DNA of 64,000 bases from Obrimoposthia wandeli. Its lineage: Eukaryota. The notes under the pieces are model-generated. The model searched no databases, had not been told where the DNA came from, and saw only the letters and a program-made list of their open reading frames with translations. Shown in pieces: positions 16,175-64,000 of the stretch; the stretch's first letter is position 1, and the number at the start of each line of letters is the position of its first letter. The stretch spans positions 1 through 64,000 of the forward strand of contig CDROCS010004875.1 in the NCBI GenBank assembly GCA_977020255.1. The letters run 5' to 3'. The position numbers and the translations under genes are program-made.

Positions 16175-16653
16175 GATTATTTAGATTTGAATGATATTTG
16201 GCTTTATGTTTAACTAAAAGTAAGTAATTCAGATGATACTAATTTAATAGAAAATAGACACATGTTAATTACTTCTTTAATTCTTTATTTAATGATGCTA
16301 TTGTTACTCTTAATAATGTTTAAATTGAAGATGGAAATTCTTCCTATACTCATAAAGCTTTGATGGAAAGTCTATTGAATTATAGTACTGATACTCAAAA
16401 TACTAATTTGCTACCCATTGGTAATGATAAAACGGATGAAACTCACAAAGAATGGATTGCAGAATCTAAAGCGTACGAAATGTGTGGATCTATGAAACTA
16501 AACGTTTTTGAACAACCTAAATATTTAATTACCGATGTTAATGTACATCTTCGTTTGAAACGCAATAAATGGAATTTTTCTTTGATAAGTCCAGAAGTTC
16601 TAAAACCTAGACTTGATATATTTGAATGCGAAAATATATGTCCGACGAATTAA
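16175..16653 (+). pseudogene. N-terminal/middle fragment of a Polinton major capsid protein, outside the right TIR
   Basis: DYLDLNDIWLYV*LKV...NSLFNDAIVTLNN..YTHKALMESLLNYSTD...WIAESKAYEMCGSMKLNVFEQPKYLITDVNVHLRLKRNK fits the Polinton MCP pattern (YIDL..T.LYV; YPY.AY.E.LLNY; IA.SK..E..G....D.F.Q...L...V....L.R). Confidence 0.82.
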
Positions 16654-19600
16654 AACCGAACAATCTATTTTAATGGCACATAATATAGGAATGGGAAAAA
16701 ACAATGCTTGTTATACTATTAGATAAACTAAACTTATAACATAATCCTAGTCGGTACATGTGAGGACAAATTGAGGACTTTCAGAAGTTAAATGGGAAGC
16801 CAAGAATCGTAGGCACCTGCTCAAATTCGCTTTTGACGGAATTCAGGTATCCTATACGTTAATTCGTCGAATTTCAGTTTGCCACCTTGACCACTGTACC
16901 ATCCACCGTCAGTAAACTGTTCTTACACAGTTAAAAAGTGTATATATATATCTTAGAACATATATAGATTACTTTCAGGACGCTTTACGAATTATAGTCG
17001 ATATAATTTTTAAATATTTGTGCTTGTCTGCATTTTATAACTCTATTTACAATATTTAAATAACACATAGAAACAAATAAACTGTAATATAGAACAATAT
17101 ATCAGGTAGTTTGATTTAGGATTTGATGATAATTCTTTAGTTTTCCATCTTCAATGATACTTTCAATTTTTTAATCAATTCTCACAATATTGTCATTGTT
17201 ATTGCTTGAGACTTTATATACGAAGTCATACTTTTCATTCTCCTTCAAGCATTTAATGTCAATAATTGCAATATGAAACTTTTTGGTGACATATGTATAT
17301 GGTGAATTTTGACTTAACGGAAAATACTTGAACGTGAATTCACTCATCGCAACAGTCCGTTTGTCAAGAACTTGTATAGTATTCTCTCAATCAAAAACTT
17401 ATAATAAAGTTACAAGTTAAGTTGATGATTGAGAGTTTTCTCACAATTGTTTGACGGTAAAATCACATACAAGTCTCAATCTGTTTCGAATAAATCCATT
17501 ATGTTGATGACTGACCATGTAATTTATATTGTTTATATTTACCAATACCTTTAGATTTATTGATATTTTAGATTAGAATTATATATTATTCGATTTTATT
17601 GATTTAAATTTAATGAAATTTGACAAACACGATTAATTTGACTGAAAGGGATATTACTTTTTTAATGGAGCCAGCCGACTGCTGAGAAGGACTGACACGT
17701 GAGGACAAGCAACCAGTTATTGAAGAAGTCAACATAATATAAGTTCTGACGCGATGGGAACATATTTGTCCAAGGCAGGTCAACGTGGTTCGATTTCAAG
17801 ATTACCGGGGCAACGACAGAATAGAAGTGGTATCGACGGCGCTGCATTCACACAAAGGTCAACACTACCATAAAGCACACCGACCTCTCGCAATATTCAT
17901 ATAACTTCAAACCGAATAGAGAATTGAAATGGCGACAATGGTGGAAAATAATGTGGTGGAAGAACACAGACCTTTCTTTTGGCAGTGAAAAGTTTTCATT
18001 TAATGATAGAAAGAATTAAAAATAATTAAACTATTTATTAAGATTTTGTTCGGACGATTTCCCTTACTCCAGTTTTAAGACTTACAAACGAAACATTTAA
18101 TTCTTTGTTTAGATAAAAAAATATGGAATTCTTTAAAACTATTTTTTCTAAAGCTCGAAGACGTAAAGCTGGTATCGAAGTTCGGTACTCCTGCTTTCAT
18201 AATCCTATTCTTTCATCTCATTCCATTTTGTTTTTGAATTTCTAGAAGATAAATACGAATGCCTTCTATTGCAATTTGAATAAAATATTATGCCTAAATG
18301 TTTATTAAAAATGTGATTAATTATTGTCACAGTACGTTTATGGGCGATAGGTATTCATGACAAATAACGATTGCCTAAAAAAATTATGTGTACTGTCTGG
18401 GTACCAAAAAACGAAATTCGAGACATTTGTTAGAAATAAAGTTTTTTTTGAGTGTTTTAAATTTGAGAAAATATAAATAAATTTTTTCTTGTCAGCGTAA
18501 ACAAACGAATAAGTAGATTTGAATAAACAATGAAACAGTAGAAACATTTGTCATGCAGGCTCGAGTCAACGCGCCTCACAGTGGCTCTTCTTCGGAGTCC
18601 GGGATTGGCAAAAGTGCTGGGTCTCTTTCGGGACAGTGTTGAGAGAAATTTCTTCAAGGAGCCGAATTCAGAGACGGGAGCACTGACACTATCACAGAGA
18701 AAAAAATAGATCCAGATAAAAGAAAAAAAATCAGAGATTTAGATATAAGAAAAACATACAGGAGTTGAAAAAATTGAAAAAAATCTAAACATTTCGATGA
18801 TAAGGAATAAAATTAAATAGCCAAAATCTCAAATATCTACGAAATTTTTTTTTGAGTAAAACCAACAGACTTCCACACACCAATGGAGAAATTTACAGGC
18901 ACACATAATCATTAGCACAGTAAAATAAGACAAATATCAAAGATAAAACAGCGAAGAAAATAAAGCAAAAAGAGAACGAATCACTTGGACAAAGATGAGT
19001 TACAAATGTTTCGGTTTTAGCTGTTTTTGCTTTATCAAACATTCCGGACAAGTCGAAGAAGATAAAACAGAACAAAAAGAGAGGGATCAAATCCAAACAA
19101 ATCGGCGACAACACAATAGCAAAAGAGCAATTTGAGGTTACACATCTGTAGAAAAGAACTGGGAAAGTTACGTTAAGTGGACTTCAAAGTGAGGATGGAC
19201 AAAAGCAGTTTGTACAGGATTACATGCGACCAAACTGATAAAATACAGGGGAGTGTGCCTAAATTACGGTTAGATGGTTTCGTAGTGGGAGAGTAGCAGA
19301 AAATGGTCTCAAAGAAAACTGTTTTCCATTACACAATCCCAAAGGTTTAGAGAAAGTTCCTTTAATGATTGTAGTTGAAGCAGTTTGATGACCGAATCCG
19401 ATTCGTCTTTTTCACGGAATTTCTTCAGCAGAACAATATTGTAGTTGTTGTCGGAAGAAACATTCAAGTCGTTAGGGACTGTGAAGGAAGTAAAAAATGA
19501 CAAAGTACATTACCTTGCGTAAGATACACATCTTCTGGCAACAAATTCATAAAATCTTTGTTAAATTAAACAACTTACTATTTTTACATTTTAGGTTGTT

Positions 19601-25800: not shown

Positions 25801-28800
25801 TATTACGAAGCGCCCAGGGCTACACGCAAATTTTTTTTTAAAAAAAAAAGGTTGCATATTTATCCGCTCCAGAAAATAATAAGAATTATACCGGAAACAT
25901 ATCAAAAAGACCTTCTTAAACCGAAAAATATATATGATTTAAAATTTTAAATAAAAGGTTTAAAGTTTTATTTATTTGTTAAACCCAAGTCAACACTTTA
26001 TTATTTGGGTTTAGAATAGCTATCTATTAAAATTCTTTCAAAAGTAATTTCTATTATTTCTAGAGTAAATTTTAAACTACAGGTTTAAAAAATGAACTTG
26101 GGTTGTTTTTACTGCTTTGTATCACGGATATCTCATTCGAAATGTGAAATATTTATTAAGAAATATACACAAACCTAATATAATAAACAAGAAGTTTAAA
26201 TAAAAAAACATTATATTAATATTATATTTAATTAAAACAAAAACAACATAAAACAAATAGAAATTCATTTTTAAAACAAAATATAACAGAAAAACCAAAT
26301 ACAAATCCATTTACATAACAAAAAATAATATTTTCATCTTAAATGTGCTTCTTTCTACATTTCTTTTCTGCGAAGTTTTTAATTATATTTTCTGTATCCA
26401 AACTTCCAAAAAATGATGATTCAATCGATAGAATACTTAAATTATTTAATTTCTGCTCTCCTATTACTGAACGTAGATAGTTTTTTATTCTATTCAACGT
26501 AGAAAAAGATCGTTCGCCACTACAATTTGTAACAGCTACACTGGGTAAAATTCGGAGAGCAGTTGTAACATTTGGAAATGTTGATTCAATACCTGCATCT
26601 ATAATTGTTTTTAAACATAATTCAGATTTTGAAATTGTTTCGTCATATTTAAGGTTGATGTGTCTAAAATGTAAACATTCCTCAATAAAATTATCGTCTA
26701 AATCTCTTGAGTATGTGTTATACAAAATTGCAGATTGCGATCTAATTGTTTGCTCGTCTACTTTCTTTAAATTAGTTAATATTCCAAATTTAGAAAATAT
26801 ATCGTCATAAGCACATTTTCTTCTTCCAATTTCAACAAGGAGTTTGTCTATTACTACATAATACGTTTGTGTACGGAATTCAGTATTTTGATCAAATTCT
26901 TCGCCATCACCTTCACCAAATTGTCTTTTTCTAGTATTTAATCTCTTATGTTTATACTGATAAGATCCACATAATCCGGCACCCTTAATTTTATAATTTT
27001 CGAACTCTTCAATGTTGCGTTTGGATTGTATATACAGTTCTAGTGCGTTATATAATTCAACAATAGTTTCAATATCAATATTAACTTTTTGAAGTGACTT
27101 ATTAGTTTTGTTGATAGTTTCCAAAATATCATTCCAAAAACAAGCATTAAGGTGGATTCGAGTAGTGCTAATTGATTTAATATTCCTTTTGCTTCAAATT
27201 TTGCAGTATACTTTTGCGTAGAATCTTCTGAAATATTTTTTAACGCATTTTTAAAGCACTCGTATCCCATAGATATTGCATTAACAGCGTCAGCTCTTGC
27301 CGACCAACGGGTGTCACTTAATTTCTTTGGAACTTTACATTTTGTTGGTAAATGACTTTTGAGTAATTGCCATCTATATGTTGAAGCTGAGAAAAAATTG
27401 TATAATTCCTGTATCAATAGAAAACCTTGTGGCTTCAATACAACATTCTGCAGCAGATTCTCCTATTAAATTTAGTGAATGAGCCGCACAAGGCACGTAA
27501 ATAGCGAGATTGTTTTTTTCTTTTACACGAGCTTGAAGACCTGTATATACACCTGACATATTGCTAGCAGTATCATAGGACTGCCCTCTACAATCATCTA
27601 GATTAATATCAAAATCTTTCAAAATATTTATAACAGAATCTTCAATTTCTGAACTTTTGTGGCCTACATTTACAACAAACGTTAAAAACCTTTCTACGGC
27701 GATTCCATTGACATTTACATATCTGACTACAATCGTGAGCTGATCGGAATGTGAAATATCAGGAGTTGAATCAATTATTAATGAATAATACTTAGCCTCT
27801 TTTAATTCGGCAATAATAGAACTTCTCACGTGATTTCCTAAAATTTCAATAAATTCGTCGCATATATTTTTTGACAAATATGAAACACTTCCCCGTCCTT
27901 TATTGGCAAAATCTAGTAAATGTTGTTGCAGTAATGGATCAAATTTTGCCAATAATTCAATGCAACCTAAATAATTTCCATTATTTCTTTCTCCAATTGT
28001 CTCGTTGTCCCCACGAAAAGCCAGACCTCTTGAGCTTAAAAATTTTATGACTTCAACTATTCGAAGCAAAATATTTCTCCAATACCTTATTTCATTTAAA
28101 GTCGTATTTTCAAAACTTTTTTAAAATATTGATGATTGTTTAACCTGTTAATATGTGTGCTAATATTTGATTTATGTGCAGATGAGTTTTCATGATCTGT
28201 TATATACTCATTATGTTTCCAGTCATTAAAACCCGTAGTAAAAGAATTACAGATATTACCAAATAATGAGCAAGAAATGCAATAAACTTTTCCTGTTGAT
28301 TTAGAATATATAAGCCAATTTCGTTTCTGCCTTTTACCGTTGGCCAGAATTCGGTAGAATATGGAAATGGTTGCACATCTATTTTGGCCTTTATACGTTA
28401 CTTTAGAGGCATAAAAGTTCAATTTACTAATATCAACATCTGAGATATTATTAATTATTTCTGTTATTTTTTTCAGTTAATTCTTCCCATTTAGCTGGAT
28501 CTTCATAATTCACAAAATCTATAGTATCACTTTCACTTACCACGTTTAGTTCGGAGTTTGGTAAAACGTCAGGGAGCAAATCTTGTTGTATATCCTCTTG
28601 TAGTATTTCTGGATTTTCATGTTCGTATTGCGATTGTTGACTTTCCTGTTGTTGATTTTGAGCTGGATCAGATGAAGTGCTTCCACTTGTTTTTTGTTTG
28701 AAAAAGCTTGTCAACGGTTGAATTTTTTCTAACAATGCATTTTCTTTAGCTTCCTTTTCTTCGTTTAACTTGCGTCTGGCATGACCAGACAATTTTTTTG

Positions 28801-31800
28801 ATTTCCTATCCATACTTAGTCGTATAAAAAACAAATTTAGTAAATATTACTTATACGTAAAAGATTTTAAAATAAGACAAATCATTAACAATCAATAATA
28901 ATTCAAAACTAACCTTTTTATTGTTATTTATTATTGTAAAAAATTTTTAATCAACAAGTTATAAGTAGAATAATTATGTGCATTAATTTATTCAAACGCA
29001 ATTTTTTAAAAATTAATAAAATAAAATCAATAAGAGCTGGTGATTTTTCTAAATACACAAACGTCACAAACAAACACGATAATTTAAAAAAGCAATTGTC
29101 TTCATTTTTCCAGCCTATTCATTTTTCTTTTGAATAAATTTGAAAAAGAAAATAAAGTGTTTTGCAACAGAATTATTTTTTTCTATGATGTCTCATATGT
29201 TTTTCAAAATATTTTAATTTTAGTTTTTAATTTTATATAAATGAGCTTTGCTTTTTACCGTAGATTTATATTGAAAGGATGTAGATTTGAAATCATTTGT
29301 ATTATAGAGAGTTAACTGTATTCCAGACTAGACGACAAAGGATGAATTTAGAGTTTGTTTAAATTCTTGGATTTTGAATTGATTATGATTATTCTAACTT
29401 AGAATTATTTTCATTTCTTCTTTCTATATATCCTGAGAACTTTCTATATATAGGACTTTTTGAACTTCAAACCACATCAGGAATTATGTTCAGGTAGCTT
29501 TATGACCTCATGATAATAACTGTTTATGGACAAATGGATTGCTGTAGGTCCACTTTGAACAGTTTTTGTCACGCATTCGGGCCATTAATTTACACTTCAA
29601 ATCGCCATTACTTCTTTTAAATTCTTTTAATCATTGGCCTTATATAAGGAAGTCACTTTAAAAATATATATTTCAAGGGGAAAGTTAAAGAAACAATAAA
29701 ACTTCCTTATGCAATTTATTTATATAATTTTAAAAAATCAATTTTGTCAACGTATTCTATTTTTTGATCAGCATTTTTTTATCTCCACAAATTCAATTTG
29801 AAATTGACTGATTCTAATATACTGCTAAATGAAAATAAAATAAAAAGTAAAACAGTTAACTGTATTTGACAATTAGATAAGCATAATGTTAATGATTTTA
29901 ATATAATCATTCAATACATCTTAATTAAATTTTAATTTTATTGTTTGGAATTTCTTTCAATTAAATTAAAATTAGATAAACTCAATGTTAAAAGAATATA
30001 ACATTTCAAAGAGCAACTTATGAATAATATTGAAAATAATTAGATTTACTTACTAGATTTCATATAAATTATTTTAAAAGTTCGATTTAAAAATATACGA
30101 AACAAAATACAATCGTTTGTAATTTTTCCCAAACTCTTCCTTAGGAAATAAAGTTAGTTCTCTTTAAGTTTCATAGTTGAAGAATATTTTTTTAAAGGGT
30201 TATTAAATGCGGCCCTTGACGTAAATTATTTAAATTTTGCCATCTAAAAAATGTTATTCCTCTTCTTTGGCACTTGTTAAAAATTCTTCAATAATAATAC
30301 CATATTTTTGACTGATTAAAATAACTGAAAATTCCAAATCATCATATGGCATCGAATATGTTAATATCAAAATATTTTCGAAACACACAGTTAGATTTCC
30401 TATAAAAATAAAACTACAACTTGACTGAAATAATAGAAAATCCCACTAGCTCTTCTACCAGCTTCTTTATTTATTCAACTCCTCCCTACTCATCATTCAA
30501 CTAAGATGGATTTAGAAATCATAAAGATAATCTCTGTTCTATGTCTACAATCTGTGGTGTATCATCATGTGATGGTTTGACATAATATATGATGTTTTAA
30601 TTTGCCTTATATTTCTTGAATCACTAAATCGAAAGATTCTATTTTTCTATTAAGAAGCATAATCTTTAGTTGTACATACTTATTGATATTTGTTTTTGTT
30701 ATTAGCCAACATTTTGAAAAATAGTTACTTTCAGTTATACTCTCAATCTTTACAACAATCTTCCAATGAATATAAGACAGTGTAACGATGTTGAAAAATT
30801 CAAGAAGCAGCTGAAGACTCAGTTATTAAGAATAATAAAAAACAGGAAGCGCATTTGAGTAATAAATCATAAATTCAATATAAATTAGCGCTATATTAAA
30901 TAAATGATTGTTATAAGTTTATTAACAATTTTAAAAATTAAACTTTCATAATAATCAAATAAAAAAGTAAAGTATTATAATTTATTTAAATAATGTTATC
31001 TTAAAGGCAGATTTTTGTGCTAATAGATTCAATAAAATAAAAAACCGAGATTACGATGAGGGCGAAGATGCTGTGATGTTGTATTTGAAACAAGCTCGAA
31101 GTATTAGTGCTCCCATTTCTGGCTCATTTTTCAAGTCCAAAGCTGTCCAAGGCTATCGATAGATATACCATGAAATTATTTTTTGAGTTTTAAGTGGGGA
31201 AACCTTTGAGGTACCTAAACTAACAGCGGAGGAGGGTTAAAAGATTACTGGAAATGATGAACGACAATTTACCAAAATATATGTATAACGGTGATAAAAC
31301 AGGCATATTCTTCCAGATTCTGCTTCCAAAAGCTGGCTTCACCATACATGCTTCAGATCAACGAGGAACCCCATCACATTTGCATTTATTGAACTAGGCG
31401 ATAATTTTGAATATGTTGGTTTGGATTCCAATATAAAAGTCTGTCTCATTCAATCAATATTTGACATCTTCCGTGAAATTCAATCATCACTTCAAATCAA
31501 GCTGAATGTGATTCAAGCAGTTGTGGGAGTATCAAATTAACACTACTATATCAAACTATTCGAGAAGCTAAAGTAGTTTTAAATACATTACAATGATACG
31601 GTGTCGACCGATGTTAGACTTCTTGAATCTATTGGCAAATGAAAATACTGACTTAAGTTTTGAATATTATCTTAATTGTTTTAGATGTTCAATTTTAGTT
31701 TACTATGCTTATAACGAACCAAAAGTATGGTCCTTGGAGTACGTTAAAGTGGGATTTTACTGTACATATAATGGGAAAATATATAGCATTTATTTTAAAT

Positions 31801-34800: not shown

Positions 34801-37800
34801 TACTATGTTTGTCCCACTCACACGAACGAAGAGAAGTTGCCATTGGCGATGGCGGATAACAGCGACTCAGTTAGTTTGAGTATTTCCTGCTTCCGGTCTG
34901 TCAGGTCATCAGATTCATGTTAACTTTGTGACAAAAAATCAATAGCCAACTCATTATAGGCAGTGTTGAGTAAAAACAAGTTATGATGGGTAATAGCTAA
35001 TTACACAGCATTCAATTATATAAATTTTAAAAAAAATTTAAGTATTTCTGCAAATTTTATGAAACTTTATAAATAGTACTGACCTTAATTGGAAATGTCA
35101 TTCAACGGTTATTGTGAAAATACATCCCAAAAACATTCCTAAATGACATCGTTTCTCTACATGTTTGAAAATGTAAATATTGCATCCAAAGTCAAAAGTT
35201 TTATTTATATTGAATATTAGTCACAATTATATTAGAACGGTTAGAAAAGTTCACATTTTTAGTTTCCTTCTACTTTGTTTCGACATTTTGTTATTTTATT
35301 ATTATAATAAAACACATTCATATTCATCTCAATTGTTGGTCGTATATTTATTACCGAGGATTTTGAATAGCATAAAATAAAATTCTCTACGTAACACTCG
35401 CAAATTTGAAACTATTTTGAGCAATGAAATAATGTTGTAAAATGGAACTAGTTGATTAATTGAACAATAACTTAGGACACTGTAGATAGGCTCAAAAACA
35501 AAGCCTGATTAATGGTTACCTAAAAGAAAAATATATTTTCACCCAATTTTCGACTTTTCTAACAAGATCCAAGTTACAGAATTGATTATGTGCTAACACA
35601 AATTTTTATTTTACAACAAAAACGTTATTATTTTGGCTAAAATTACAAAGGAAATATAATTTAGTGACAACGACTGATTTCATTGATATTTATTGTTTAG
35701 GCAGAAAATATTTAATTTACGAGTCAACAAAGTTTATATCTTAATGTGTTTTAAATGCCAAACAGCTTATAAAAGAAATTCGTTAAAAAATGTTAAGAAT
35801 AAAAATATATTTTCAAATTTCTGAATCAAAATATGATTTCTTCTAATTAATAAAATTTACCCTTTTATTTTTATTTTATATTACAGTTTGACTAAAAAGC
35901 TTAATGTAATTTAAGAAAAGTAGGTAGAAGGATGGAGTCTAGACCACTTGACCCCCCCCCTAAAGGGTGACATACCATAAGGATGTCTCGCCACACCATA
36001 AGGGTATATGTTGCCTCACCTCCGGTGACCCAACATATACCCTTATGGTATGACACCCTTTAGGAGGAGGCGGGGAGGGGAGGGGTAGCGGGGAGGGGTC
36101 AAGTGATCTAGACTCCATCCTTCTTTGATATACCACTATGGTCATCCATAGTTTAAAGGGTCAAGTGGCTTAGTCTCCACCCTTCTTTTTGAGATATACC
36201 ACTATGAAAGGGTCAAGTGGCTTAGTCTCCACCCTTCTTTTTGAGATATACCACTATGAAAGGGTCAAGTGGCTTAGTCTCCACCCTTCTTTTTGAGATA
36301 TACCACTATGAAAGGGTCAATTGGCTTAGTCTCCACCCTTCTTTTAGTGATCTAGTCTCCACCCTTCTTTTTGGTTAACCACTAATTCAAAGGGTCAAGT
36401 GGCTTAGTCTCCACCCTTCTTTTTTGTGATCTAGTCCATAATGAAAATTTAGGATAAAGTTCACACTTATCAATTAAGAAATGTGGTTTTTAACACACAC
36501 ATACACTATTTTATGTGAAATTTAAACTAAAGTTCACTCTTATAAGTTAATGAATGTATTACGTAATCACACACATACTATTTTATGTGAAATTTAGATC
36601 AAAGTTTTTCCTAGGCTTTCACATTTATAGAATTATGATAAAATTTCTTTAAATAACTTCAATTATATATTAAAATAAAAAATAAAATAAGAAAGAAGTC
36701 AGAGAATAATACAAAATTAAACACATTTATTATGTAATTTCATAATATCATCTTCAAACTTAAGTGAATAACATTTACAAAGTAAGAAAGTCCATTCTTT
36801 ATACATTCTTTTCGTTTCAACGACTAAGTTACAACGGAATTAATAGAAAATTAGTAAAAAATATTAATTTATTTGAATATTTGAATGAGAGTTTGAATAA
36901 ATGAGAGGTAGAATGAATGTAAATGAATAAAATTATGCATGCAAGTATGAATGTCATTTACAAGTAAGAGTCTTAGCAAGTGAATGTAATTTTAAAAAAA
37001 AATAAGAGTGTCGATAGTTTGATTGAATGCAAGTGTAATTTAGACTATAAGTAAATTAAAATAGAGTTTTCGTTGAATAAATTATAGTTAGATTGAATGC
37101 AAGTATGACGAGCAAGTGAATGATAGTTTGAATTTCAATACAAGTAAGCGGGTTTAGCAAGTGAATGTAATTTTAAAAATAAGAGTGTCGATAGTTTGAT
37201 TGAATGCAAGTGTAATTTAGACTATAAGTAAATTAAAATAGAGTTTTCGTTGAATAAATTATAGTTAGATTGAATGCAAGTATGACGAGCAAGTGAATGA
37301 TAGTATGAATTTCAATACAAGTATGAATGTAATTTAAAAATAAGTGTCGATTTTGATTGAATGCAAGTGTAATTTAGACAAGTAAATTAAAATAGAGTTT
37401 TCAGTGATTGAATGTATGACGAGCAAGTGAGTATGAATTTCAAGTGAAAGTGAATAATTTTAAAAATAAGAGTGTCGATAGTTTGATTGAATGCAAGTGT
37501 AATTTAGACTATAAGTAAATTAAAATAGAGTTTTCGTTGAATAAATTATAGTTAGATTGAATGCAAGTATGACGAGCAAGTGATTGATAGTATGAATTTC
37601 AATACAAGTAAGTGGGTTTAGCAAGTGAATATAATTAAAAAAAATAAGAGTGTCGATAGTTTGATTTTTTAAATTACTTGATATTTTTTGTCATTGTCCG
37701 TTTAATATAATATGAATATTCAATTTATTTCTTCAAAAATTCATTTTATATGTTAAATAATATTCTTTATCACATTATTGTGGTTTTTATCAAGTTATTT

Positions 37801-40800
37801 TAACCTTAAACTATAAAAATATTTTAATTATAAAGTTAGTAGCTGTACCCCGCCCACTGCATATAACATAAATTTCAAATATAAAGTACTATTAAGTTTA
37901 TTATTTCGAATAGTAAATGTTTTTTCGAGTTATTTAATTTTGTTTACTAGACATTCGAAAATTTACTTGTAAACTACAATATTTATTTGTTGTTGTATAT
38001 ATTTAGTTTAAAATGTTGTAAGTTATTACTTTAATATAATTTTCAACAAAAACTTCAAGTAGTTTACTTATTAAACATAAGTTTAATGTTTTGTACAATA
38101 AATTGACTTGTAAACATAATTTATTTTGATATATTTTCAATTTAATATGTTGTAAGTTATTACTTTAATATAATTTACAACAAAAACTTCAAGTAATTTA
38201 CTTGTAAACTACAATATTTATTTGTTGTTGTATATATTCAGTTTAAAATGTTGTAAGTTATTACTTTAATATAATTTTCAACAAAAACTTCAAGTAGTTT
38301 ACTTATTAATCATAATATTAATGATTTGATCAATAAATTGACTTGTAAACATAATATAATTTGCATATTTTACAATTTAATATATTGTAAGTTATTACTA
38401 TAATATTACATTACATAAAAAAATTAATTGATAGTTTACTATCGTTTACAATAAATTGACTTGTAAACATAATATATTTATGCATATATTCACTTTAATA
38501 TGTTGTAAGTTATTACTTTATTATAATTTTCAACAAAAACTTCAAGTAGTTTACTTATTAAACATAAGTTTAATGTTTTGTACAATAAATTGACTTGTAA
38601 ACATAATTTATTTTGGTATATTTTCAATTTAATATGTTGTAATTTATTACTTTAATATAATTTACAACAAAAACTTCAAGTAATTTACTTGTAAACTACA
38701 ATATTTATTTTATTGTTGTATATATTCAGTTTAAAATGTTGTAAGTTAATACTTTAATATAATTTACAACCAAATCTTCAAGTAATTTACTTATTAATCA
38801 TAATTTTAATGATTTGATCAATAAATTGACTTGTAAACATAATATAATTTGCATATTTTCAATTTAATATATTGTAAGTTAATACTGTAATATTTCATTA
38901 CATAAAAAGTAATTCATAGTTTACTGTCGTAAATTGACTTGTAAACATAATATATTTATGCATATATTCACTTTAAAATGTTGTAAGTTATTACTTTAAT
39001 ATAATTTTTAAACAAAAACTTCAAGTAGTTTACTTATTAAACATAAGTTTAATGTTTTGTACAATAAATTGACTTGTAAACATAATTCATTTTGGTATAT
39101 TTTCAATTTAATATGTTGTAAGTTATTACTTTAATATAATTTACAACAAAAACTTCAAGTAATTTACTTGTAAACTACAATATTTATTTGTTGTTGTATA
39201 TATTCAGTTTAAAATGTTGTAAGTTATTACTTTAATATAATTTTTAAACAAAAACTTCAAGTAGTTTACTTATTAAACATAAGTTTAATGTTTTGTACAA
39301 TAAATTGACTTGTAAACATAATTCATTTTGGTATATTTTCAATTTAATATGTTGTAAGTTATTACTTTAATATAATTTACAACCAAATCTTCAAGTAATT
39401 TACTTATTAATCATAATTTTAATTATTTGATCAATAAATTGACTTGTAAACATAATATAATTTGCATATTTTCAATTTAATATATTGTAAGTTAATACTG
39501 TAATATTTCATTACATAAAAAGTAATTCATAGTTTACTGTCGTTTACAATAAATTGACTTGTAAAAATAATATATTTATGCATAACATAATATATTCACT
39601 TTAAAATGTTGTAAGTTATTACTTTAATATAATTTTCAACAAAAAAAAAACTTCAAGTAGTTTACTTATTAAACATAAGTTTAATGTTTTGTACAATAAA
39701 TTGACTTGTAAACATAATTTATTTTGGTATATTTTCAATTTAATATGTTGTAAGTTATTACTTTAATATAATTTACAACAAAAACTTCAAGTAATTTACT
39801 TGTAAACTACAATATTTATTTGTTGTTGTATATATTCAGTTTAAAATGTTGTAAGTTATTACTTTAATATAATTTTCAACAAAAACTTCAAGTAGTTTAC
39901 TTATTAATCATAATATTAATGATTTGATCAATAAATTGACTTGTAAACATAATATAATTTGCATATTTTCAATTTAATATATTGTAAGTTATTACTATAA
40001 TATTACATTACATAAAAAAATTAATTGAAAGTTTACTATCGTTTACAATAAATTGACTTGTAAACATAATATATTTATGCATATATTCACTTTAATATGT
40101 TGTAATTTATTACTTTAATATAATTTACAACAAAAACTTCAAGTAATTTACTTGTAAACTACAATATTTATTTTATTGTTGTATATATTCAGTTTAAAAT
40201 GTTGTAAGTTAATACTTTAATATAATTTACAACCAAATCTTCAAGTAATTTACTTATTAATCATAATTTTAATGATTTGATCAATAAATTGACTTGTAAA
40301 CATAATATAATTTGCATATTTTCAATTTAATATATTGTAAGTTAATACTGTAATATTTCATTACATAAAAAGTAATTCATAGTTTACTGTCGTAAATTGA
40401 CTTGTAAACATAATATATTTATGCATATATTCACTTTAAAATGTTGTAAGTTATTACTTTATTATAATTTTTAAACAAAAACTTCAAGTAGTTTACTTAT
40501 TAAACATAAGTTTAATGTTTTGTACAATAAATTGACTTGTAAACATAATTCATTTTGGTATATTTTCAATTTAATATGTTGTAAGTTATTACTTTAATAT
40601 AATTTACAACAAAAACTTCAAGTAATTTACTTGTAAACTACAATATTTATTTGTTATTATATATATTCAGTTTAAAATGTTGTAAGTTATTACTTTAATA
40701 TAGTGACAATTTGACTTGTAAACATAATTCATTTTGGTATATTTTCAATTTAATATGTTGTAAGTTATTACTTTAATATAATTTACAACCAAATCTTCAA

Positions 40801-43800
40801 GTAATTTACTTATTAATCATAATTTTAATTATTTGATCAATAAATTGACTTGTAAACATAATATAATTTGCATATTTTCAATTTAATATATTGTAAGTTA
40901 TTACTATAATATTACATTATATAAAAAGTAATTGATAGTTTACTATCGTTTACAATAAATTGACTTGTAAACATAATTTATTTTGATATATTTTCAATTT
41001 AATATGTTGTAAGTTATTACTTTAATATAATTTACAACAAAAACTTCAAGTAATTTACTTGTAAACTACAATATTTATTTGTTGTTGTATATATTCAGTT
41101 TAAAATGTTGTAAGTTATTACTTTATTATAATTTTCAACAAAAACTTCAAGTAGTTTACTTATTAATCATAATATTAATGATTTGATTAATAAATTGACT
41201 TGTAAACATAATATAATTTGCATATTTTCAATTTAATATATTGTAAGTTAATACTGTAATATTTCATTACATAAAAATTAATTCATAGTTTACTGTCGTT
41301 TACTATAAATTTACTTGTAAACATAATATATTTATGCATTTATTCACTTTAATACGTTTTAAGTTATTAGAATTTGTGTTCTTGTATTCAATGATTAACT
41401 TTTATTAAACTATTATATAACATTGAAATGTTTAAAATACTTGAGCAAAATAAATTAATTTAATAAAAGGATATTAAAATGTATTTTAGTTTAAGATTTA
41501 AAAAAAATGAGGTTATACGAAGTTAATCTAGTTTAAAAAAAAACAATTAATACCAAAATTACTTACCAGAATGTCGAAATAATAAACTTAATAGTACTTT
41601 ATATTTGAAATTTATGTTATATGCAGTGGGCGGGGTACAGCTACTAACTTTATAATTAAAATATTTTTATAGTTTAAGGTTAAAATAACTTGATAAAAAC
41701 CACAATAATGTGATAAAGAATATTATTTAACATATAAAATGAATTTTTGAAGAAATAAATTGAATATTCATATTATATTAAACGGACAATGACAAAAAAT
41801 ATCAAGTAATTTAAAAAATCAAACTATCGACACTCTTATTTTTTAAATTATATTCACTTGCTAAACCCACTTACTTGTATTGAAATTCATACTATCAATC
41901 ACTTGCTTGTCATACTTGCATTCAATCTAACTATAATTTATTCAACGAAAACTCTATTTTAATTTACTTATAGTCTAAATTACACTTGCATTCAATCAAA
42001 CTATCGACACTCTTATTTTTAAAATTACATTCACTTGCTAAACCCACTTACTTGTATTGAAATTCATACTATCATTCACTTGCTCGTCATACTTGCATTC
42101 AATCTAACTATAATTTATTCAACGAAAACTCTATTTTAATTTACTTATAGTCTAAATTACACTTGCATTCAATCAAACTATCGACACTCTTATTTTTAAA
42201 TTACATTCACTTGCTAAACCCACTTACTTATATTGAAATTCATACTATCAATCACTTGCTCGTCATACTCGCATTCAATCTAACTATAATTTATTCAACG
42301 AAAACTCTATTTTAATTTACTTATAGTCTAAATTACACTTGCATTCAATCAAACTATCGACACTCTTATTTTTAAATTACATTCACTTGCTAAACCCGCT
42401 TACTTGTATTGAAATTCAAACTATCATTCACTTGCTCGTCATACTTGCATTCAATCTAACTATAATTTATTCAACGAAAACTCTATTTTAATTTACTTAT
42501 AGTCTAAATTACACTTGCATTCAATCAAACTATCGACACTCTTATTTTTAAAATTACATTCACTTGCTAAACCCGCTTACTTGTATTGAAATTCAAACTA
42601 TCATTCACTTGCTCGTCATACTTGCATTCAATCTAACTATAATTTATTCAACGAAAACTCTATTTTAATTTACTTATAGTCTAAATTACACTTGCATTCA
42701 ATCAAACTATCGACACTCTTATTTTTTTTAAATTACATTCACTTGCTAAGACTCTTACTTGTAAATGACATTCATACTTGCATGCATAATTTTATTCATT
42801 TACATTCATTCTACCTCTCATTTATTCAAACTCTCATTCAAATATTCAAATAAATTAATATTTTTTACTAATTTTCTATTAATTCCGTTGTAACTTAGTC
42901 GTTGAAACGAAAAGAATGTATAAAGAATGGACTTTCTTACTTTGTAAATGTTATTCACTTAAGTTTGAAGATGATATTATGAAATTACATAATAAATGTG
43001 TTTAATTTTGTATTATTCTCTGACTTCTTTCTTATTTTATTTTTTATTTTAATATATAATTGAAGTTATTTAAAGAAATTTTATCATAATTCTATAAATG
43101 TGAAAGCCTAGGAAAAACTTTGATCTAAATTTCACATAAAATAGTATGTGTGTGATTACGTAATACATTCATTAACTTATAAGAGTGAACTTTAGTTTAA
43201 ATTTCACATAAAATAGTGTATGTGTGTGTTAAAAACCACATTTCTTAATTGATAAGTGTGAACTTTATCCTAAATTTTCATTATGGACTAGATCACAAAA
43301 AAGAAGGGTGGAGACTAAGCCACTTGACCCTTTGAATTAGTGGTTAACCAAAAAGAAGGGTGGAGACTAGATCACTAAAAGAAGGGTGGAGACTAAGCCA
43401 ATTGACCCTTTCATAGTGGTATATCTCAAAAAGAAGGGTGGAGACTAAGCCACTTGACCCTTTCATAGTGGTATATCTCAAAAAGAAGGGTGGAGACTAA
43501 TCCACTTGACCCTTTCATAGTGGTATATCTCAAAAAGAAGGGTGGAGACTAAGCCACTTGACCCTTTCATAGTGGTATATCTCAAAAAGAAGGGTGGAGA
43601 CTAAGCCACTTGACCCTTTAAACTATGGATGACCATAGTGGTATATCAAAGAAGGATGGAGTCTAGATCACTTGACCCCTCCCCGCTACCCCTCCCCTCC
43701 CCGCCTCCCGCCTCCTAAAGGGTGTCATACCATAAGGGTGTCTTGCCATACCATAAGGGTATATGTTGGGTCACCGGAGGTGAGGCAACATATACCCTTA

Positions 43801-46800
43801 TGGTGTGGCGAGACATCCTTATGGTATGTCACCCTTTAGGGGGGGGTCAAGTGGTCTAGACTCCATCCTTCTACCTACTAAGAAAATTTAGAAGTTTTGG
43901 TAAATTATGATTTTAAATTGTGCCACTTCAATAAAGAAAGACATACATCGTACCCAATTACAGTTTGAGAATAAATTGAAGACGTTACAAAATGAAGCTG
44001 GATGAATGTATAGTTAACTCCAACCACTGATCCTCTGGCTAGAAGGATGAAACATTCTCTTTTATTCTCGGAAAGACAACAGAAACAATTAAGACACCAA
44101 CGCCACCGGGTTCAGATCAGTGTACTTTTCTGCTAGCCAGCAAGAGCTAGCTGCCTCTAAATTCCGAGCAGTCACAAAGTAGACTTGATTAAATATTTAT
44201 TCTCCGAGGTATTGCGACTCCCACACAAGATTGGCAGCGTCATTGTTTTCTTGGCTGCACCAGACTTGTACCCCCAAAATGTATTGATTTAGTTGCCATG
44301 CCATTGCGACTTGTGTCAACTTAACAGACACTGACGCCAACAACTCGCGCAATATGCAGATTGTCTTTCTGTGAAGAAGTAATGCGATGCTGTGGAATAG
44401 ATTTAACCAAAACTATTTCATTTACATGGTGGAAAATTTTATTTCTTCCCTATATAATTACCCTTTTTCTACTATTAAACGTTAACCACAGATTAAATGG
44501 AAAAATTTTAAAAAAAAATACTATAAAAGTTATAAATGAATTTTTAAAAAATATCACATACAAAGCGTGTATTAAACGCAAATATTTAATTTGTAATAAA
44601 CATCGCAACAAATAATCGAAAAATTAAATTGCATATTTTCTTGAAAAAATTTGTTTATGAATAAAATCTGGAAAATAAAGACAAATAACAATAATTTTAT
44701 TAAGCATTACAAATTGTAATAATTGTAAGCCATCAATTTTGTGGGGGAAATTGAATAAAGTAGAATTTGATAGGGTCTTTGTTTTTAAAAGTTCTGAATA
44801 AATGAAACATCGACAGAACGAGATTTGGTGATAGTTCATTTAACGAATATTTCTCATCTCATGAGCAGCAATTTTTGGCGAGATGAATTTGCGAAGGTTT
44901 TGGGAAAGATCTAACTGTCCAATTAACACAAATAGCAATGAAATTATTTTTCAGTGTCTAGGTAACATTTCCTATGTAACATCCTGCCTGTATGCACTCC
45001 CATGATATAGAACCCTGAAAACAATATCAGCGTTCCTAGCAGCGAAATCAAGCTTCTGGCCCAAAGATTCATCGAAACGCCAAGTCACTAGTCATTACCG
45101 TTATAGTTAAATCCAGCACTCTACCAACCAAAAGAGAGAATTGGTGAAGTTGATAGATTTCATTACTTTAAAAACACCTTAACCGACTAAATTCCAAGCG
45201 ACATTTAATATACTTTACAATCCCATCTATTTGACATTGTATATATAATAATTTGTAGAATCCTTTCTTCTGATTCATGAATTTTTCTCAATGATTTTTC
45301 ATTTTTTTGAATCGTTTTCTTTACATTTAAAGAGTAAATAACATATTAAATAATTAAAGTTCAACTAATTAAAGTTAACTAACATAGCCATCATTTCTAA
45401 TACAGCCAGGAAAAGGAAAATAACCTTGACGTAGAGTAGACGTTGAATTTTAAACAAAAATGAAAAATTACCCAGTTTAAAAATAAATGAGATTTTTTAT
45501 TTATTAATGATTTGAAAAATTAAAACAATAGAAATTTATTGTAAAATTTCATTTACAACTAACTTCAAATTCAAAATTTTCATTAAAATAAACAGTATAA
45601 AAACCTGACAAAAAGTTAAAAAGGTAATATAATTCTCACTTTTGGAATCCACATTGGCCATTGCAGAAGAATCCTGCAAATCTTTGTCAGCAACTCCGGT
45701 AGTAGAAGTTGCCTGTTGGTTCTTCTTGTTCGCAACGACAGCGGCTAATAGAGCGCTGGCTGCAGTGGTTGAGGCAACACTGTTAGCAGAAGACGAGGAT
45801 ACTGTGGCAGCTATTGGAGCAGCAGCAACAGGAGTTGTGGTCGAAGAAGAAGAAGCAGCAGTTGCAGTGGTGGCAGTAGCAAGAGTGTTGACTGACGACA
45901 TGAGAGCATTACTGCTGGTGTTGGTGCTGTTTTGATTGGCTGCAGATTGGTTGCTGCTGTTTGTGATGCTCTTGGCTACTGAAGACAGACAGATTCTAAT
46001 GTGAATGGTGGTGATCAGGGACAAAGTGTCACCGCTACCATTGTATCGTGTGTTGGTGTGTCTTACAGCACAACAAGAACTTACTATATTGTTATTTTAA
46101 TTTGTCAAGGTCATCACAACAACAAAAATTATTTACCTTTTCCAATTTTTCATTTTAAGAACATTAGTGTATTTTTAAAAATTGTCTAGTACAGTCAAAA
46201 TTTTATCTAAAGTAATTTAATTTTAATTGTGTGTTGATATTTCAATTATTATAACCAAAGTCACTCAACTACGAAATAATAATTTTATGTGACACATTCA
46301 CTTTTTAATCAATAAATTGTGTGTAACAAGAAATTAGGGAATATAATTAAGACACCACATACTCAAAAGATCAACACCAGATTTACATGCATTTATTGCT
46401 GTGAAATTGATCAGTAAAGTGTCCAGTCAGCTACTTAATTACATTAACAGAATTTTTATTCGTTGAAAAAACATTAAATTTATTTATTGCATTAGATACC
46501 ATACAGTAAAAATTAAAATGTTGCAAATGAAACTTTAAATCGTGATTTCAATGTAAAAAACAACAACAAAATTTAATAAATTCGTACAATGTAAAAATAA
46601 AAGCTAATGTAAAATTTTGTGTGAAAGGATACATCTACGTTATGTATACATTATTTAAGAACAAATATGAATAATTAAAATGTTTTAATCATATACTTAT
46701 GTTAGTCAGTATGCAATATTTATTATTTTTTAAAAATTCGAGAGAAAAACTTTAAACAATAAAGAAATTTAGAAAACGATATAATTTTTAACTTAATTTA

Positions 46801-61800: not shown

Positions 61801-62550
61801 ATGAAGAGATCGATAATGTACCTAATCCAACCGACCTTCCGCAATGCCATCCAATAGAAAACGTATTCGAACAACTTGCTCAGGAAGTGTACAAAAATAA
61901 GTGGGTAGGAGCAGATCTAAACCCATTGAAACGCAGCATAGCAAACTACCTAAAGAAGACAGATTTCCCAGCTGTACAAGAGTCTGGCAGAGGAAAACCG
62001 AAAATATTATGTGAATGTTCACATTAGTTCTATTGGGTTTTAAGATTGTAAATATTACGAAATTGTGTTTAAAATACATTGTTCAAAATGTTGGAGTTAT
62101 TTTCTAAAAGTTCAAAGTTTGTGTAAATTTTTAATTGACACCAGTTATTATCTTCAAGTCGTATAATATAGTCTTGAATGACTCTTTTACGAAATTTCGT
62201 ATACGAAATAGGTTTTCAAGGTTGAAAATACTTCTACCTTCAGATTTCTTATTGTTGTTAACTTCATTATATAAATTTATTTTCCTTTAAGCTCTTATCT
62301 TCTTGACTAAATATTGATGTTGAAACTAAATTTTTCAACTTTTGATGGCTTTAGAGACTTTTATATATATAGAAAAACGTTGTCTAGCATTGGATCTCTG
62401 AAATCAAAAGAATGGTGATATACTTACGCAAATCCATGGATTCTTGAGAGCTTCTGAGGCAGAAATGCGCTTGGAAATGTTGACCTGGAGCATGGAGTTG
62501 ATCAGCTTCTTTGCCTCCACAGTAACAGTGTCCCATTCAGGAGAGGGGTA
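19765..62550 (-). CDS. CaMKII: Calcium/calmodulin-dependent protein kinase II, 3' eight coding exons: 62550-62428, 59502-59419, 56847-56805, 45978-45640, 34897-34822, 21735-21641, 21438-21321, 19873-19765
   Basis: All introns are GT-AG and phases join (0,0,1,1,2,1,2). Translation: [21 protein letters not shown]...[52 protein letters not shown]..linker..[114 protein letters not shown]. Confidence 0.95.
20850..21200 (-). mobile_element. LINE (L2/CR1-like) 3' relic
   Basis: Similar to 56880-57070 (ccaaatatttatatgat...gaatttttacaacaacttaccgatg). Confidence 0.5.
21321..21438 (-). CDS. CaMKII: CaMKII hub exon
   Basis: gacag | ..[32 protein letters not shown] | gttagt. Confidence 0.93.
21641..21735 (-). 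CDS. CaMKII: CaMKII hub exon
   Basis: tgcag | [31 protein letters not shown] | gtgagt. Confidence 0.93.
22280..22900 (+). mobile_element. Degraded Tc1/mariner transposase relic
   Basis: [12 protein letters not shown] resembles FQQDGAPPH; [19 protein letters not shown] resembles WPPRSPDLTPLDFFLWGYLK. Confidence 0.65.
24500..25400 (-). mobile_element. LINE relic (RT and 3' end)
   Basis: Shares a block with 20990-21070 (ttacatgttcactgca...ataaatatttggac); degenerate SGV..GS RT-like motif near 25070-25100. Confidence 0.4.
25787..30218 (-). mobile_element. hAT DNA transposon (Tip100/ZMYM1-like transposase)
   Basis: CAGGGCCGTCTTAA end at 25787 and a degenerate inverse (tattaaatgcggcccttg) ending near 30218; transposase inside. 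No exact 8-bp TSD, so the right boundary is uncertain. Confidence 0.7.
26339..28834 (-). pseudogene. hAT transposase split into five ORFs
   Basis: TTF-type Zn finger ([26 protein letters not shown]), [50 protein letters not shown] and the hATC motif [19 protein letters not shown]. Confidence 0.92.
31030..31570 (+). mobile_element. pogo/Tigger transposase relic
   Basis: [22 protein letters not shown] (CENP-B HTH-like) and [15 protein letters not shown] (resembles N.DETGLF...LP). Confidence 0.6.
32200..32720 (-). mobile_element. Chapaev3-like (CMC) transposase relic
   Basis: [61 protein letters not shown] resembles FPENLG.VSDEHGERFHQDI..ME.RYQG.W. Confidence 0.65.
34822..34897 (-). CDS. CaMKII: CaMKII first hub exon
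   Basis: gacag | [24 protein letters not shown] | gtgagt. Confidence 0.93.
36156..36435. repeat. 52-bp subterminal tandem repeat in the left arm (mirrored at ~43290-43625 with one extra copy)
   Basis: aagggtcaagtggcttagtctccacccttctttttgagatataccactatga recurs with period 52. Confidence 0.9.
37960..41340. repeat. Extremely AT-rich composite satellite (units ~90-135 bp) forming the core of element B
   Basis: Recurrent modules ttgtaagttattactttaatataattt, caacaaaaacttcaagta and aaattgacttgtaaacataat in repeating orders. Confidence 0.93.
41815..42760. repeat. ~177-bp tandem repeat (about 5 copies) in the right arm; fewer, partly degenerate copies in the left arm (~36990-37670)
   Basis: aatcaaactatcgacactcttatttt recurs at about 41818, 41995, 42173, 42350, 42525 and 42703. 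Confidence 0.92.
45640..45978 (-). CDS. CaMKII: CaMKII linker exon, 339 nt, Ala/Ser/Thr-rich, phase 1-1
   Basis: ttcag | (L)AKSITNSS...[14 protein letters not shown] | gtgag. The AKSI start parallels vertebrate NFS-AAKSL. Confidence 0.88.
49029..51548 (-). mobile_element. BEL/Pao LTR retrotransposon pol relic (RT, integrase, C-terminal DUF5641-like)
   Basis: [17 protein letters not shown] (RT); [36 protein letters not shown] (integrase); [27 protein letters not shown] (Pao C-terminus). Interrupted at ~49840-50450. Confidence 0.85.
52884..53719. mobile_element. piggyBac-like non-autonomous element (836 bp) with TTAA TSDs
   Basis: TTAA|CCCATAAATGACGA ... TCGTCATTAATGGT|TTAA (14-bp TIR, 2 mismatches); subterminal inverted motif GGGTCA-aatg-TGACCC. 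Confidence 0.7.
53250..53395 (-). pseudogene. Fragment of a Polinton cysteine protease gene inside the piggyBac-like element
   Basis: [37 protein letters not shown] aligns with the protease at 8688-8840, including the intron 3' end (tttaatttag). Confidence 0.8.
54638..55625. mobile_element. Probable hAT (Charlie/Buster-like) relic
   Basis: CAGCGGTCTCAAACTC start typical of Charlie-type TIRs; degenerate ggcccaagtttcgggacatg near 55610. Confidence 0.4.
56805..56847 (-). CDS. CaMKII: CaMKII exon with the CaM-binding end and inhibitory T305/T306 equivalents
   Basis: tgcag | [14 protein letters not shown] | gtgagt. Confidence 0.93.
56880..57070 (+). mobile_element. LINE (L2/CR1-like) ORF2 3' end
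   Basis: [39 protein letters not shown] fits AP.LWN.LP......FK..LKT.LF. Confidence 0.65.
59419..59502 (-). CDS. CaMKII: CaMKII regulatory-segment exon (T286-equivalent in HRQQT)
   Basis: tgcag | [28 protein letters not shown] | gtaaga. Confidence 0.96.
59670..60968 (+). mobile_element. hAT SPIN/Charlie-like (GTF2IRD2-type) transposase relic with right TIR
   Basis: [13 protein letters not shown] (resembles KEYNLRRHYET.H); [16 protein letters not shown] (resembles A.KI.AMFGSTYLC); TIR atttgagtttgacatcccgg. Confidence 0.7.
60975..62145 (+). mobile_element. Tc1/mariner element with both TIRs, TA TSD and degraded transposase
   Basis: TA|acgggtgtcaattaataatttgcacaacttt ... aaagtttgtgtaaatttttaattgacaccagt|TA. 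ORF 61764-62027 [30 protein letters not shown] resembles NPP..PQ.RPIE.FW..LK..VY. Confidence 0.8.
62428..62550 (-). CDS. CaMKII: CaMKII exon at the end of the kinase domain
   Basis: cgcag | [41 protein letters not shown] | gtaagt. Confidence 0.96.
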
Positions 62551-62583
62551 CTGCGTCAAAGACGGGGTCAGTGGGTCAATATG

Positions 62584-64000
62584 AGTAGGGGGAAGTGGGT
62601 CTTCTGGCTCACCCCCCCTGTGTGCAAGTGAGCCAGAAGACCCTAGCAACAAGTCGCGTGCCATGGCACGTGTGCGCACACCATGGCACGTGTGCGCACA
62701 CCACGGCACGTGCCACATGTGTGTATTGTTGCCGTGGCAACTACGGCACGTGTCAAGGTCACGTTTTTGTTTTAATAATCAATTTTTTGCGCAAAATTTA
62801 AATTTTTCAAAATGGCTTTTTTGCGCAAAATTTTAAATTTAAAAAAAAAAAAATCTTAAAAATTTCAAAAAAAAAAAATCTTAAAATTTTCAAAAAAAAC
62901 AAAATCTTAAAATTTTCAAAAAAAATAAATCTTAAAATTTTCCAAAAAAAAACTTAAAATTTTCCAAAAAAAATAAATCTTAAAATTTTCAAAAAAAAAA
63001 AATCTTAAAATTTTCCAAAAAAAAAAAAACTTAAAAATTTCAAACTAAAAATTTTTTACAGAAAACAAAATTGTTTACAAAATATTTTATACTTTAGAAT
63101 TAAAATTTTACACATAATTTTTATACTTTAGAAAAGACAAAGACAAATTGGATACAATATCAGCTATCAGTGTCATCAGCAATTTTTCGAATGTCGCAAT
63201 TAAACTGACATCTATATTTCTCTAATTGTTGCTGAATAATATGTCAATTGAATATAGATTTGATGTAAATGTAACCCTGGGAAAACTATTATGTGTGCAT
63301 GTCTTAAAAATGGTAGGGTTAAATTATGTCATACTGTATAGAATGCACACTGTTGTTAGGATCAAAATATATATTTTCTGGAGGTTACGTCATAAGGTTA
63401 AAAAACATCAGTGTATTAAGATGTTCTTTTATTAATTTTAAAATATGTTTTTTTAGAATGTTATAAATTATTATAGTTTATAAATGAGAAAACAAATTAG
63501 AAAATAAACATTTATTTACTAATCCCATCAAGTATTTTCCAAGTAGGAGTCACTAATCCACTAGGTCCGATCTTGTATCCTTGTATCTTCATATTGATAT
63601 TCCATTGTAATCCAGTTGGGCATTCAATTAATATTGATCCATCTATATTTCTGAAAATGGCTTCATCTCCTTTGATAATGAATTTGGGTTCTTGCAGACA
63701 ATACTCACAATTAATTTTTGTAAGTATTTTATTTATTCTTTCAACATCAGCTTTAATAATATTGGAAATCAGGTAATTGAATTTCTGTTTTTCCACCGAT
63801 ACTGGATATCTGAAATTATAATGGATGGGGTTCTTGAGAAAATGAATCTCGTAACCATGAAAAGTATGAACACGTTGATACAAATCGGTTATGGCTTGCA
63901 TTTTTATGAAAATTTATGAAATTTCTCATCGTTTATATATAAATCAATGTAGATATTAACCAATGAGAGTTAAATGGTGTGTTTATAGAACATTAATAAT
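62584..64000. mobile_element. Element C: probable left end of a third Polinton-type element, extending past the window
   Basis: AGTAGGGGGAAG terminus, 16-bp hairpin (62597-62612 with 62628-62643), 20-bp GC-rich tandem (ccatggcacgtgtgcgcaca), A-rich ~23-bp tandem (62846-63050) and an inward ORF. The other end is not visible. Confidence 0.55.
63512..63901 (-). CDS. Hypothetical 129-aa protein in element C
   Basis: Uninterrupted ATG ORF in very AT-rich DNA with globular-looking composition; no motif recognised. Confidence 0.5.
   Translation of the reverse strand: MQAITDLYQRVHTFHGYEIHFLKNPIHYNFRYPVSVEKQKFNYLISNIIKADVERINKILTKINCEYCLQEPKFIIKGDEAIFRNIDGSILIECPTGLQWNINMKIQGYKIGPSGLVTPTWKILDGISK

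Follow-up and report, generated by a model that had tools for sequence, protein, structure and literature searches.

A gene-less palindromic element of Obrimoposthia wandeli, probably derived from and mobilised by a Polinton of the same genome

How animal Polintons, also called Mavericks, replicate and form particles is still mostly inferred from their gene content. Protein priming is their presumed mode of replication (PMC4405056). Intact vertebrate Mavericks are flanked by 6-bp target duplications, have terminal inverted repeats (TIRs) of 46-1,447 bp and ends of the form (AGT)2 or (AG)3, and reach a maximum of 287 copies in one survey (PMC8097293). Here we describe a 7,961-bp element at positions 35919-43879 of a 64,000-nucleotide stretch of Obrimoposthia wandeli DNA (the window; contig C4875 of a 1.35-Gb assembly). 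This element, gene-less and palindromic, derives from a Polinton of about 12 kb in the same genome, which we call the helper, and we consider it likely that it is copied and inserted in trans by the helper's protein-primed polymerase and integrase.

Two kinds of reduced genome offer themselves for comparison: non-autonomous Polintons, to which Polinton-1N1_DR belongs by its name and by Repbase usage, and copy-back defective-interfering genomes. The former element is named, from zebrafish, in PMC9341505, and snap-back defective genomes are formed by adeno-associated virus (AAV) (PMC8235507). Butterflies contain mobile polintons that lack polB, with TIRs of about 2 kb that hold hexon and adenain genes (bioRxiv 10.1101/2025.02.07.637071). 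Outside the Polintons, Galileo of the P-element superfamily has 7-bp flanks, TIRs of up to ~1.26 kb and two-TIR copies averaging 1.7-2.2 kb, and miniature inverted-repeat transposable elements (MITEs) are usually shorter than 600 bp (both PMC3573991).

The element of the window begins with AGTAGGTAG and ends with CTACCTACT, giving the termini AGTAGG…CCTACT, and the hexamer AAGAAA stands exactly on both flanks. Its two arms are reverse complements and make up 54% of its length. In a global alignment they differ by three substitutions. The remaining differences are insertions or deletions, mostly in repeat number: a single base where C is repeated, 21 and 4 bases within the hairpin of the terminus, one 52-bp unit and ~240 bp of a 177-bp repeat. 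The innermost 271 bp of the arms, here block F, are 100% complementary, and a hairpin of −73.2 kcal/mol is predicted for the terminal ~205 bp (z −11.46, matched by 0 of 200 shuffles). An initial annotation, made from the letters alone, had listed these termini, the duplication, arms of 1,991 and 2,306 bp, an inverted repeat over more than half of the length and the absence of an open reading frame (ORF), and all of this was borne out; the longest frames are 66 amino acids from stop to stop and 61 from an ATG. Its description of the element as non-coding holds for ORFs and needs one amendment: each arm retains 63 bp left over from the gene for the helper polymerase. These 21-codon relics are all that is left of coding capacity for polymerase and integrase. 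The element had zero matches in Rfam, the helper integrase, ATPase and capsid gave zero tblastn matches within 35919-43879, and no frame there is long enough for the protease. The features of the element are, in window coordinates:

35913..35918, + strand: left target-site duplication AAGAAA, 6 bp, exact duplicate
35919..37909, + strand: left arm, 1,991 bp, reverse complement of the right arm
35919..36123, + strand: terminal ~205 bp, common to the helper; a long hairpin in which bases 9-36 pair with an inverted copy ending at base 205 (from fold and alignment)
36155..36345, + strand: 52-bp repeats, 3.7 copies, each with an inverted variant copy of terminal bases 9-36; present in helper TIRs too
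36445..36606, + strand: 73-bp repeats, 2.2 copies, of the inner helper TIR
36691..36746, + strand: the helper's unique polymerase-side tail past the TIR, up to the point where 223 bp of the helper are missing
36747..36809, − strand: relic of helper pPolB coding sequence, 63 bp, residues 1109-1129 of the 1,208-residue frame, 95% identical (tblastn)
36944..37666, + strand: 177-bp repeat array of the left arm, ~4 partly deleted copies, family-specific
37639..37909, + strand: left copy of block F, unique 271 bp, family-specific, with a GC-box-like CCCCGCCCAC at 37848
37910..37996, + strand: linker x, on both arms in fuller family members
37997..41369, + strand: array S, an AT-rich tandem array (the "satellite core"), contiguous with the left arm
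41374..41573, + strand: spacer remnant y, joined to block F by a deletion junction (221 in the genome)
41574..43879, − strand: right arm, 2,306 bp
41574..41844, − strand: right copy of block F, 100% complementary to the left copy
41817..42778, − strand: 177-bp repeat array of the right arm, 5.4 copies
42913..42975, + strand: helper pPolB coding relic, right-arm copy (tblastn, residues 1109-1129, 95%)
43377..43619, − strand: 52-bp repeats of the right arm, 4.7 copies
43880..43885, + strand: right target-site duplication AAGAAA, 6 bp

We make no claim that block F is a captured promoter or that y is a splice donor; a GC-box-like motif and a GTAAGT are simply present. Array S has ~17% GC and subunits of 85-147 bp. 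The motif GTAAACA, which we take to be forkhead-like and whose function would be putative, occurs 20 times in these 3.4 kb and 12 times in the other 56 kb of the window, as expected of any repeated unit.

The helper was found as copies of about 12 kb with the same ends and 6-bp duplications as the gene-less family. The initial annotation had inferred a non-autonomous parasite of Polintons and had proposed a search for a Polinton sharing its terminus; the existence of this coding family, together with the element's lack of coding capacity, upholds the first and answers the second. The helper integrase matches rve (E-value 7.7e-10) and the ATPase is of the Pox_A32 type (7.6e-6), both above the Pfam cut-off, and the protease is of the adenoviral C5 type at a score below the curated cut-off (0.0037). 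The nearest Atlas clusters to the 406-residue capsid carry a double-jelly-roll domain (0.98; 15-30% of members); a single-sequence fold prediction of this protein reached a predicted local distance difference test (pLDDT) score of only 31. The polymerase frame, of up to 1,208 residues, contains the B-family motifs DVNNLY and GDTDS. For most of its extent it shares 44-61% identity with the polymerase, now broken, of a neighbouring Polinton in the window, and a piece of that neighbouring polymerase matches DNA_pol_B_2 (1.8e-9); the C-terminal half of the helper frame had no match in either PDB or Pfam. We identify the frame as a polymerase because of its motifs and its similarity to the neighbouring Polinton polymerase. 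With pPolB, INT, ATPase, protease and double-jelly-roll capsid all lying between the TIRs, the Polinton identity of the helper is supported. A 31-mer of the integrase gene has 1,961 exact marks in the genome; it was put together from overlapping 26-mers, every one of which occurs in 14 of the 15 coding copies sampled.

Some further observations concern the helper itself. It is very abundant, with its 1,961 integrase marks, where the Mavericks of the vertebrate survey peak at 287 copies (PMC8097293). A TBP-like frame of 154 amino acids (L053:7034-7495, − strand; G000:C275) matches PF00352 (E-value 1e-12) and TBP in the PDB (2e-14), and the paper on adintoviruses, PMC8502044, mentions a TBP-like gene once, in the legend to a figure. 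One helper copy (L047-L050, G000:C48) contains half of a gene-less element, nested within it, together with a retroelement whose frame exceeds 3,000 codons.

The first ~890 bp of the element's arm align to the polymerase-side end of the helper. This alignment runs beyond the helper TIR into its unique tail, jumps 223 bp and stops within polymerase coding sequence. Among 34 gene-less copies, examined over the first 1.5 kb from each end, polymerase-side markers were present on 48 of 68 ends and the marker of the other helper end on 0 of 68; both ends carried the polymerase-side marker in 19 copies, one end in 10 and neither in 5. Helpers had one marker of each kind in 8 of 13 copies and the polymerase tail twice in 0 of 13. 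The presence of one helper end twice, in mirror image, is a snap-back (copy-back) layout, and, judged from these alignments, both arms of the element are derived from the polymerase-side end of the helper.

The center of the element is best read from fuller copies (C69, C31, L079, C3, L084 and L089), in which both arms extend through block F and linker x towards S, around a unique spacer of ~0.5 kb, and the S array is expanded on one side only. In the window copy the right arm has lost x and most of the spacer, so that F is joined to y; further central variants recur in the family. By this order of modules, the "satellite core" is a continuation of the left arm and not a separate cargo. The initial annotation was thus right about a tandem array in the center and wrong about gene cargo having been replaced between the left and right ends of a helper, since both arms are polymerase-side. 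The one-armed copies C34 and C14 were considered as ancestors; this is unsupported, as their long inner segment also occurs in converging pairs.

The element belongs to a large family. Its terminal 23-mer has 5,364 + 5,267 exact occurrences (10,631 in all; reversed control 0), two motifs of block F have 1,914 and 639 exact marks, y has 610 and the F-y deletion junction 221. The 1,914 marks imply at least about 960 gene-less copies, and the number may be nearer 2,000 at the rate of 28 marks per 34 copies seen in a biased sample; all copy counts are approximate, some insertions possibly standing twice in the assembly. At every one of 20 F sites sampled, the modules followed a single order, from the terminus through the repeats of 52 and 73 bp and the 177-bp array to F and then the S array. 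Copy length (n = 40) ranged from 2.4 to 30 kb with a median of 7.4 kb, a figure biased by the 10-kb fetch size.

Insertion was examined at 66 loci taken around paired termini or internal marks, and an exact 6-bp duplication was found at 56 (21/23, 16/20, 10/13 and 9/10 by batch). After two loci repeating one insertion were dropped and the window was added, there were 53 distinct duplications among 55 loci, of which 40 are gene-less, 12 are coding, 2 are mixed and the last is a mini-element of 108 bp. This is the variety of 6-bp duplications among copies for which the initial annotation had suggested looking. Twenty F-y loci were examined, of which 10 had both ends in range; nine carried exact and mutually different duplications and one a duplication with a single mismatch. 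The recurrence of this junction with different duplications indicates that the deleted form itself spread. The gene-less family has a weak target preference, A at position 2 and a pyrimidine at position 3, which is the same as that of the helper. The best 40 genome matches of an inner segment are 99-100% identical. Median arm distances within and between copies are 1.0% and 3.3% for F and 0% and 1.1% for segment c-d, values that include misaligned rows and agree in direction with the concordance of terminal variants described below. Private deletions are common, for example right ends shortened to 102-108 bp. Several copies are cut at base 102-108 at one end, which is the apex of the terminal hairpin, and one locus (L117, G000:C20:80374-80481) is the mini-element of 108 bp, which retains both termini between exact copies of GTTAGG.

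No empty-site allele was seen: the left flank is single-copy, its partial relatives are 66-81% identical, and 0 of the 9 examined continue into the right flank. Loose ends fitting the right flank were absent among the matches listed from four contig sets of one sample. The terminus was not found in viral contigs, nor was any capsid relative confirmed in them. The window element is a real, young copy of a large non-autonomous family derived from Polintons, with a snap-back layout.

That it is a non-autonomous derivative moved by this Polinton family we regard as nearly certain. Mobilisation in trans is likely on the strength of shared ends, duplication length and target preference. We propose the following model. 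A helper strand replicating from the polymerase end would have lost 223 bp, switched to DNA foreign to the helper and been copied back on itself. The snap-back molecule so formed would have two origins and, likewise, two ends for the integrase. The helper polymerase would then amplify this molecule by strand displacement; the displaced strand would pair through its long arms, and its ends would be rewritten together. Panhandle pairing and end correction are known in adenovirus replication. The repeats (52-bp, 177-bp and S) would lengthen by slippage, one arm independently of the other, and subfamilies such as that of the window would be founded by deletions. Copies would be inserted by the helper integrase with a 6-bp duplication, and template exchange with helper molecules would renew the TIR now and then.

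Three results bear on the replicative part of this model. Copies picked by the F-y junction carried the same terminal variant at both ends in 8 of 9 cases, with five variants among the copies (chance 0.20, p 2e-5), which suggests joint rewriting of the ends during replication. The concordance over all gene-less copies, 38 of 40, was not used, as many of those pairs had been picked by terminus variant. Older and newer TIR types are present in both the helper and the gene-less lineages, and succeed each other in the same order in midpoint-rooted trees. At one locus (C261), a helper is cut in its capsid gene and its capsid-side end is replaced by a satellite arm, within an exact duplication. Concordant ends, a shared succession of TIRs and this recombinant favor replication as free DNA, and on balance we favor polymerase-driven replication as the route of spread. 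A bolder proposal can be put forward only tentatively, and we doubt it in full: the element would be an inherited defective-interfering satellite of a Polinton virus, arisen by snap-back, replicating as free linear DNA on the helper polymerase, repeatedly taking over the newest helper TIR, rivalling the helper in copy number and using its tandem arrays as filler toward a packageable size, and would exemplify a class of giant palindromic satellites of Polintons that recurs among animals and has yet to be described.

Several points tell against the derivation and its replicative mechanism. The helper polymerase gave no direct Pfam match to DNA_pol_B_2, and 0 of 13 sampled helper copies had all core frames unbroken, which may reflect decay or assembly error in a sample that is small at 13 of ~2,000. 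The exact duplication is missing at 10 of the 66 paired loci. The termini, AGTAGG, are one base off (AGT)2; the end of the coding helper is identical. The tree of block F is short and weakly resolved, with 2 of 27 branches starred. Variants at terminal bases 24-27 have templates within the same TIR, so that terminal variants can recur without exchange with the helper, and host gene conversion could be another source of concordant ends. Finally, the donor of the 177-bp repeat, F, S and the spacer was not found in two helper copies, in the other Polinton families present at C199 or elsewhere in the window. Of the 60 top matches of two inner segments that were examined, 59 lay in a family context; these were the best 40 matches per search, behind which a divergent donor would be hidden.

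Four other explanations were weighed. If the helper integrase excised and reinserted the element, host gap repair multiplied it and host gene conversion lengthened and homogenised its arms, as proposed for Galileo, the helper polymerase need never have copied it. Gene-less Galileo copies have the longest TIRs, internal recruitment and arm-specific repeat number, all without an element polymerase (PMC3573991), and the differences between arms and the mixed ends of some copies (helper C58, L134) fit such a history. We nevertheless think it unlikely, in that the ends switch variant jointly in a single-junction subfamily (8 of 9), the layout with one end duplicated and the C261 recombinant are expected from template switching on free replicating molecules, and Polintons are thought to be protein-primed (PMC4405056). 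Helpers might instead have inserted first, each of them afterwards losing its genes and acquiring a mirrored arm in situ, the gene-less form never having moved. Private deletions are indeed frequent, including the right ends of 102-108 bp, and long inverted repeats are unstable; yet the same non-helper blocks and junctions stand at hundreds of sites (F 1,914, y 610, F-y 221) with different duplications, and the best 40 matches of the inner segment are 99-100% identical. In-place decay is refuted for the family by the junctions shared at unrelated sites, may hold for single one-armed copies, and as a general account is very improbable.

The modular, internally repetitive long arms also resemble those of Foldback, Galileo and Tetris, and the element could belong to a cut-and-paste superfamily (Mutator, P/Galileo) and merely resemble Polintons at its ends. 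The ~890 bp that align to the end of a co-resident Polinton include a relic of its polymerase gene, however, and the duplication length and weak target preference are those of the helper; although no search was aimed at a transposase of this kind, this leaves such an origin scarcely credible. An assembly or chimeric-read artefact, such as might arise from fold-back reads, we judge to be equally remote. Neither reads nor contigs were seen to run the full length of the element, and short-read contigs of one sample cross the left junction by 24 bases, short of a 31-base rule. Against this stand the exact duplication between a single-copy left flank and a distinct right flank, arms that are unequal in repeat number and by three substitutions with a non-mirrored spacer between them, and an identical internal junction, F-y, at 221 places. 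Derivation from the helper with mobilisation in trans remains the reading that we prefer.

The window contains other features. A broken Polinton of another family lies at 8440-16741, with capsid pieces and with polymerase pieces 22-61% identical to the polymerase of the helper; a perfect 84-bp palindrome is found at 16053-16136. Positions 62584-64000 match, at 89-99%, the Polinton-like DNA of locus C199, and next to them is a kinase-like exon (62404-62778; Pkinase, E-value 1e-5). A broken hAT transposase with DUF4371 and Dimer_Tnp_hAT lies at 26339-28846 (− strand), and positions 137-4439 hold tandem arrays (24, 110, 39, 35 and 16 bp) as well as frames that resemble the ones found in retroelement-like inserts within loci C182 and C48, where these inserts are nested.

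A gene-less family of ~1,000-2,000 copies shows which cis sequences are sufficient for amplification. The route of replication has left a fossil record in the co-variation of its ends, in the layout with one end duplicated and in the recombinant between helper and satellite. Divergence between arms can be used to date insertions, like that between long terminal repeat pairs. With ~5,300 terminus pairs, helper and satellite may, at a rough estimate, fill a few percent of the 1.35-Gb genome, and long inverted repeats at such density are a likely source of rearrangement and hairpin RNA. As such elements have no ORFs, protein-based surveys of Polintons would miss them.

How new is this system? The initial annotation had seen in it the leading candidate for an undescribed system, a view that did not survive comparison: non-autonomous Polintons and TIR lengthening in gene-less elements have already been described, and the element is therefore a variant rather than an undescribed kind. 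In the literature searched, no gene-less palindromic Polinton family was found; the founding accounts of Polintons could lower its novelty. The element is not an autonomous Polinton, having no polymerase, integrase, ATPase, protease or capsid genes, and at 7,961 bp it is not a MITE. Nor is it a member of the P- or Mutator-type Foldbacks, given its 6-bp duplications and Polinton-derived ends; it is Foldback-like in architecture only. The Mutator duplication is 9 bp.

With Polintons and Mavericks (PMC8097293, PMC4405056) the element shares the 6-bp duplication, TIRs and ends that start with AGT; unlike vertebrate Mavericks, it has no genes, arms of 2.0-2.3 kb that both come from one helper end, and the terminus AGTAGG. 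The butterfly polintons without polB (bioRxiv 10.1101/2025.02.07.637071) resemble it in their Polinton ends, lack of a polymerase and apparent movement, but keep other genes, whereas the element has none and its arms consist of tandem repeats. Galileo 2T/2RT, Foldback and Tetris of Drosophila (PMC3573991; PMC4079207) are likewise gene-less and made up mostly of long, internally repetitive TIRs, and in Galileo the TIRs are lengthened by recruitment of adjacent sequence and by arm-specific tandem expansion; these are cut-and-paste elements, while the family described here is tied to a self-synthesising, virus-like helper and makes 6-bp duplications. The snap-back genomes of AAV (PMC8235507) and copy-back genomes carry one parental end twice in mirror image, have no complete genes and depend on a helper, as does this family, but are transient, confined to infected cells and found in other virus groups. 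The present family is integrated and inherited, contains several kilobases of non-parental DNA and has diversified into subfamilies. By analogy, the element functions in the manner of a defective genome that depends on a helper, and has the outward form of a Foldback element.

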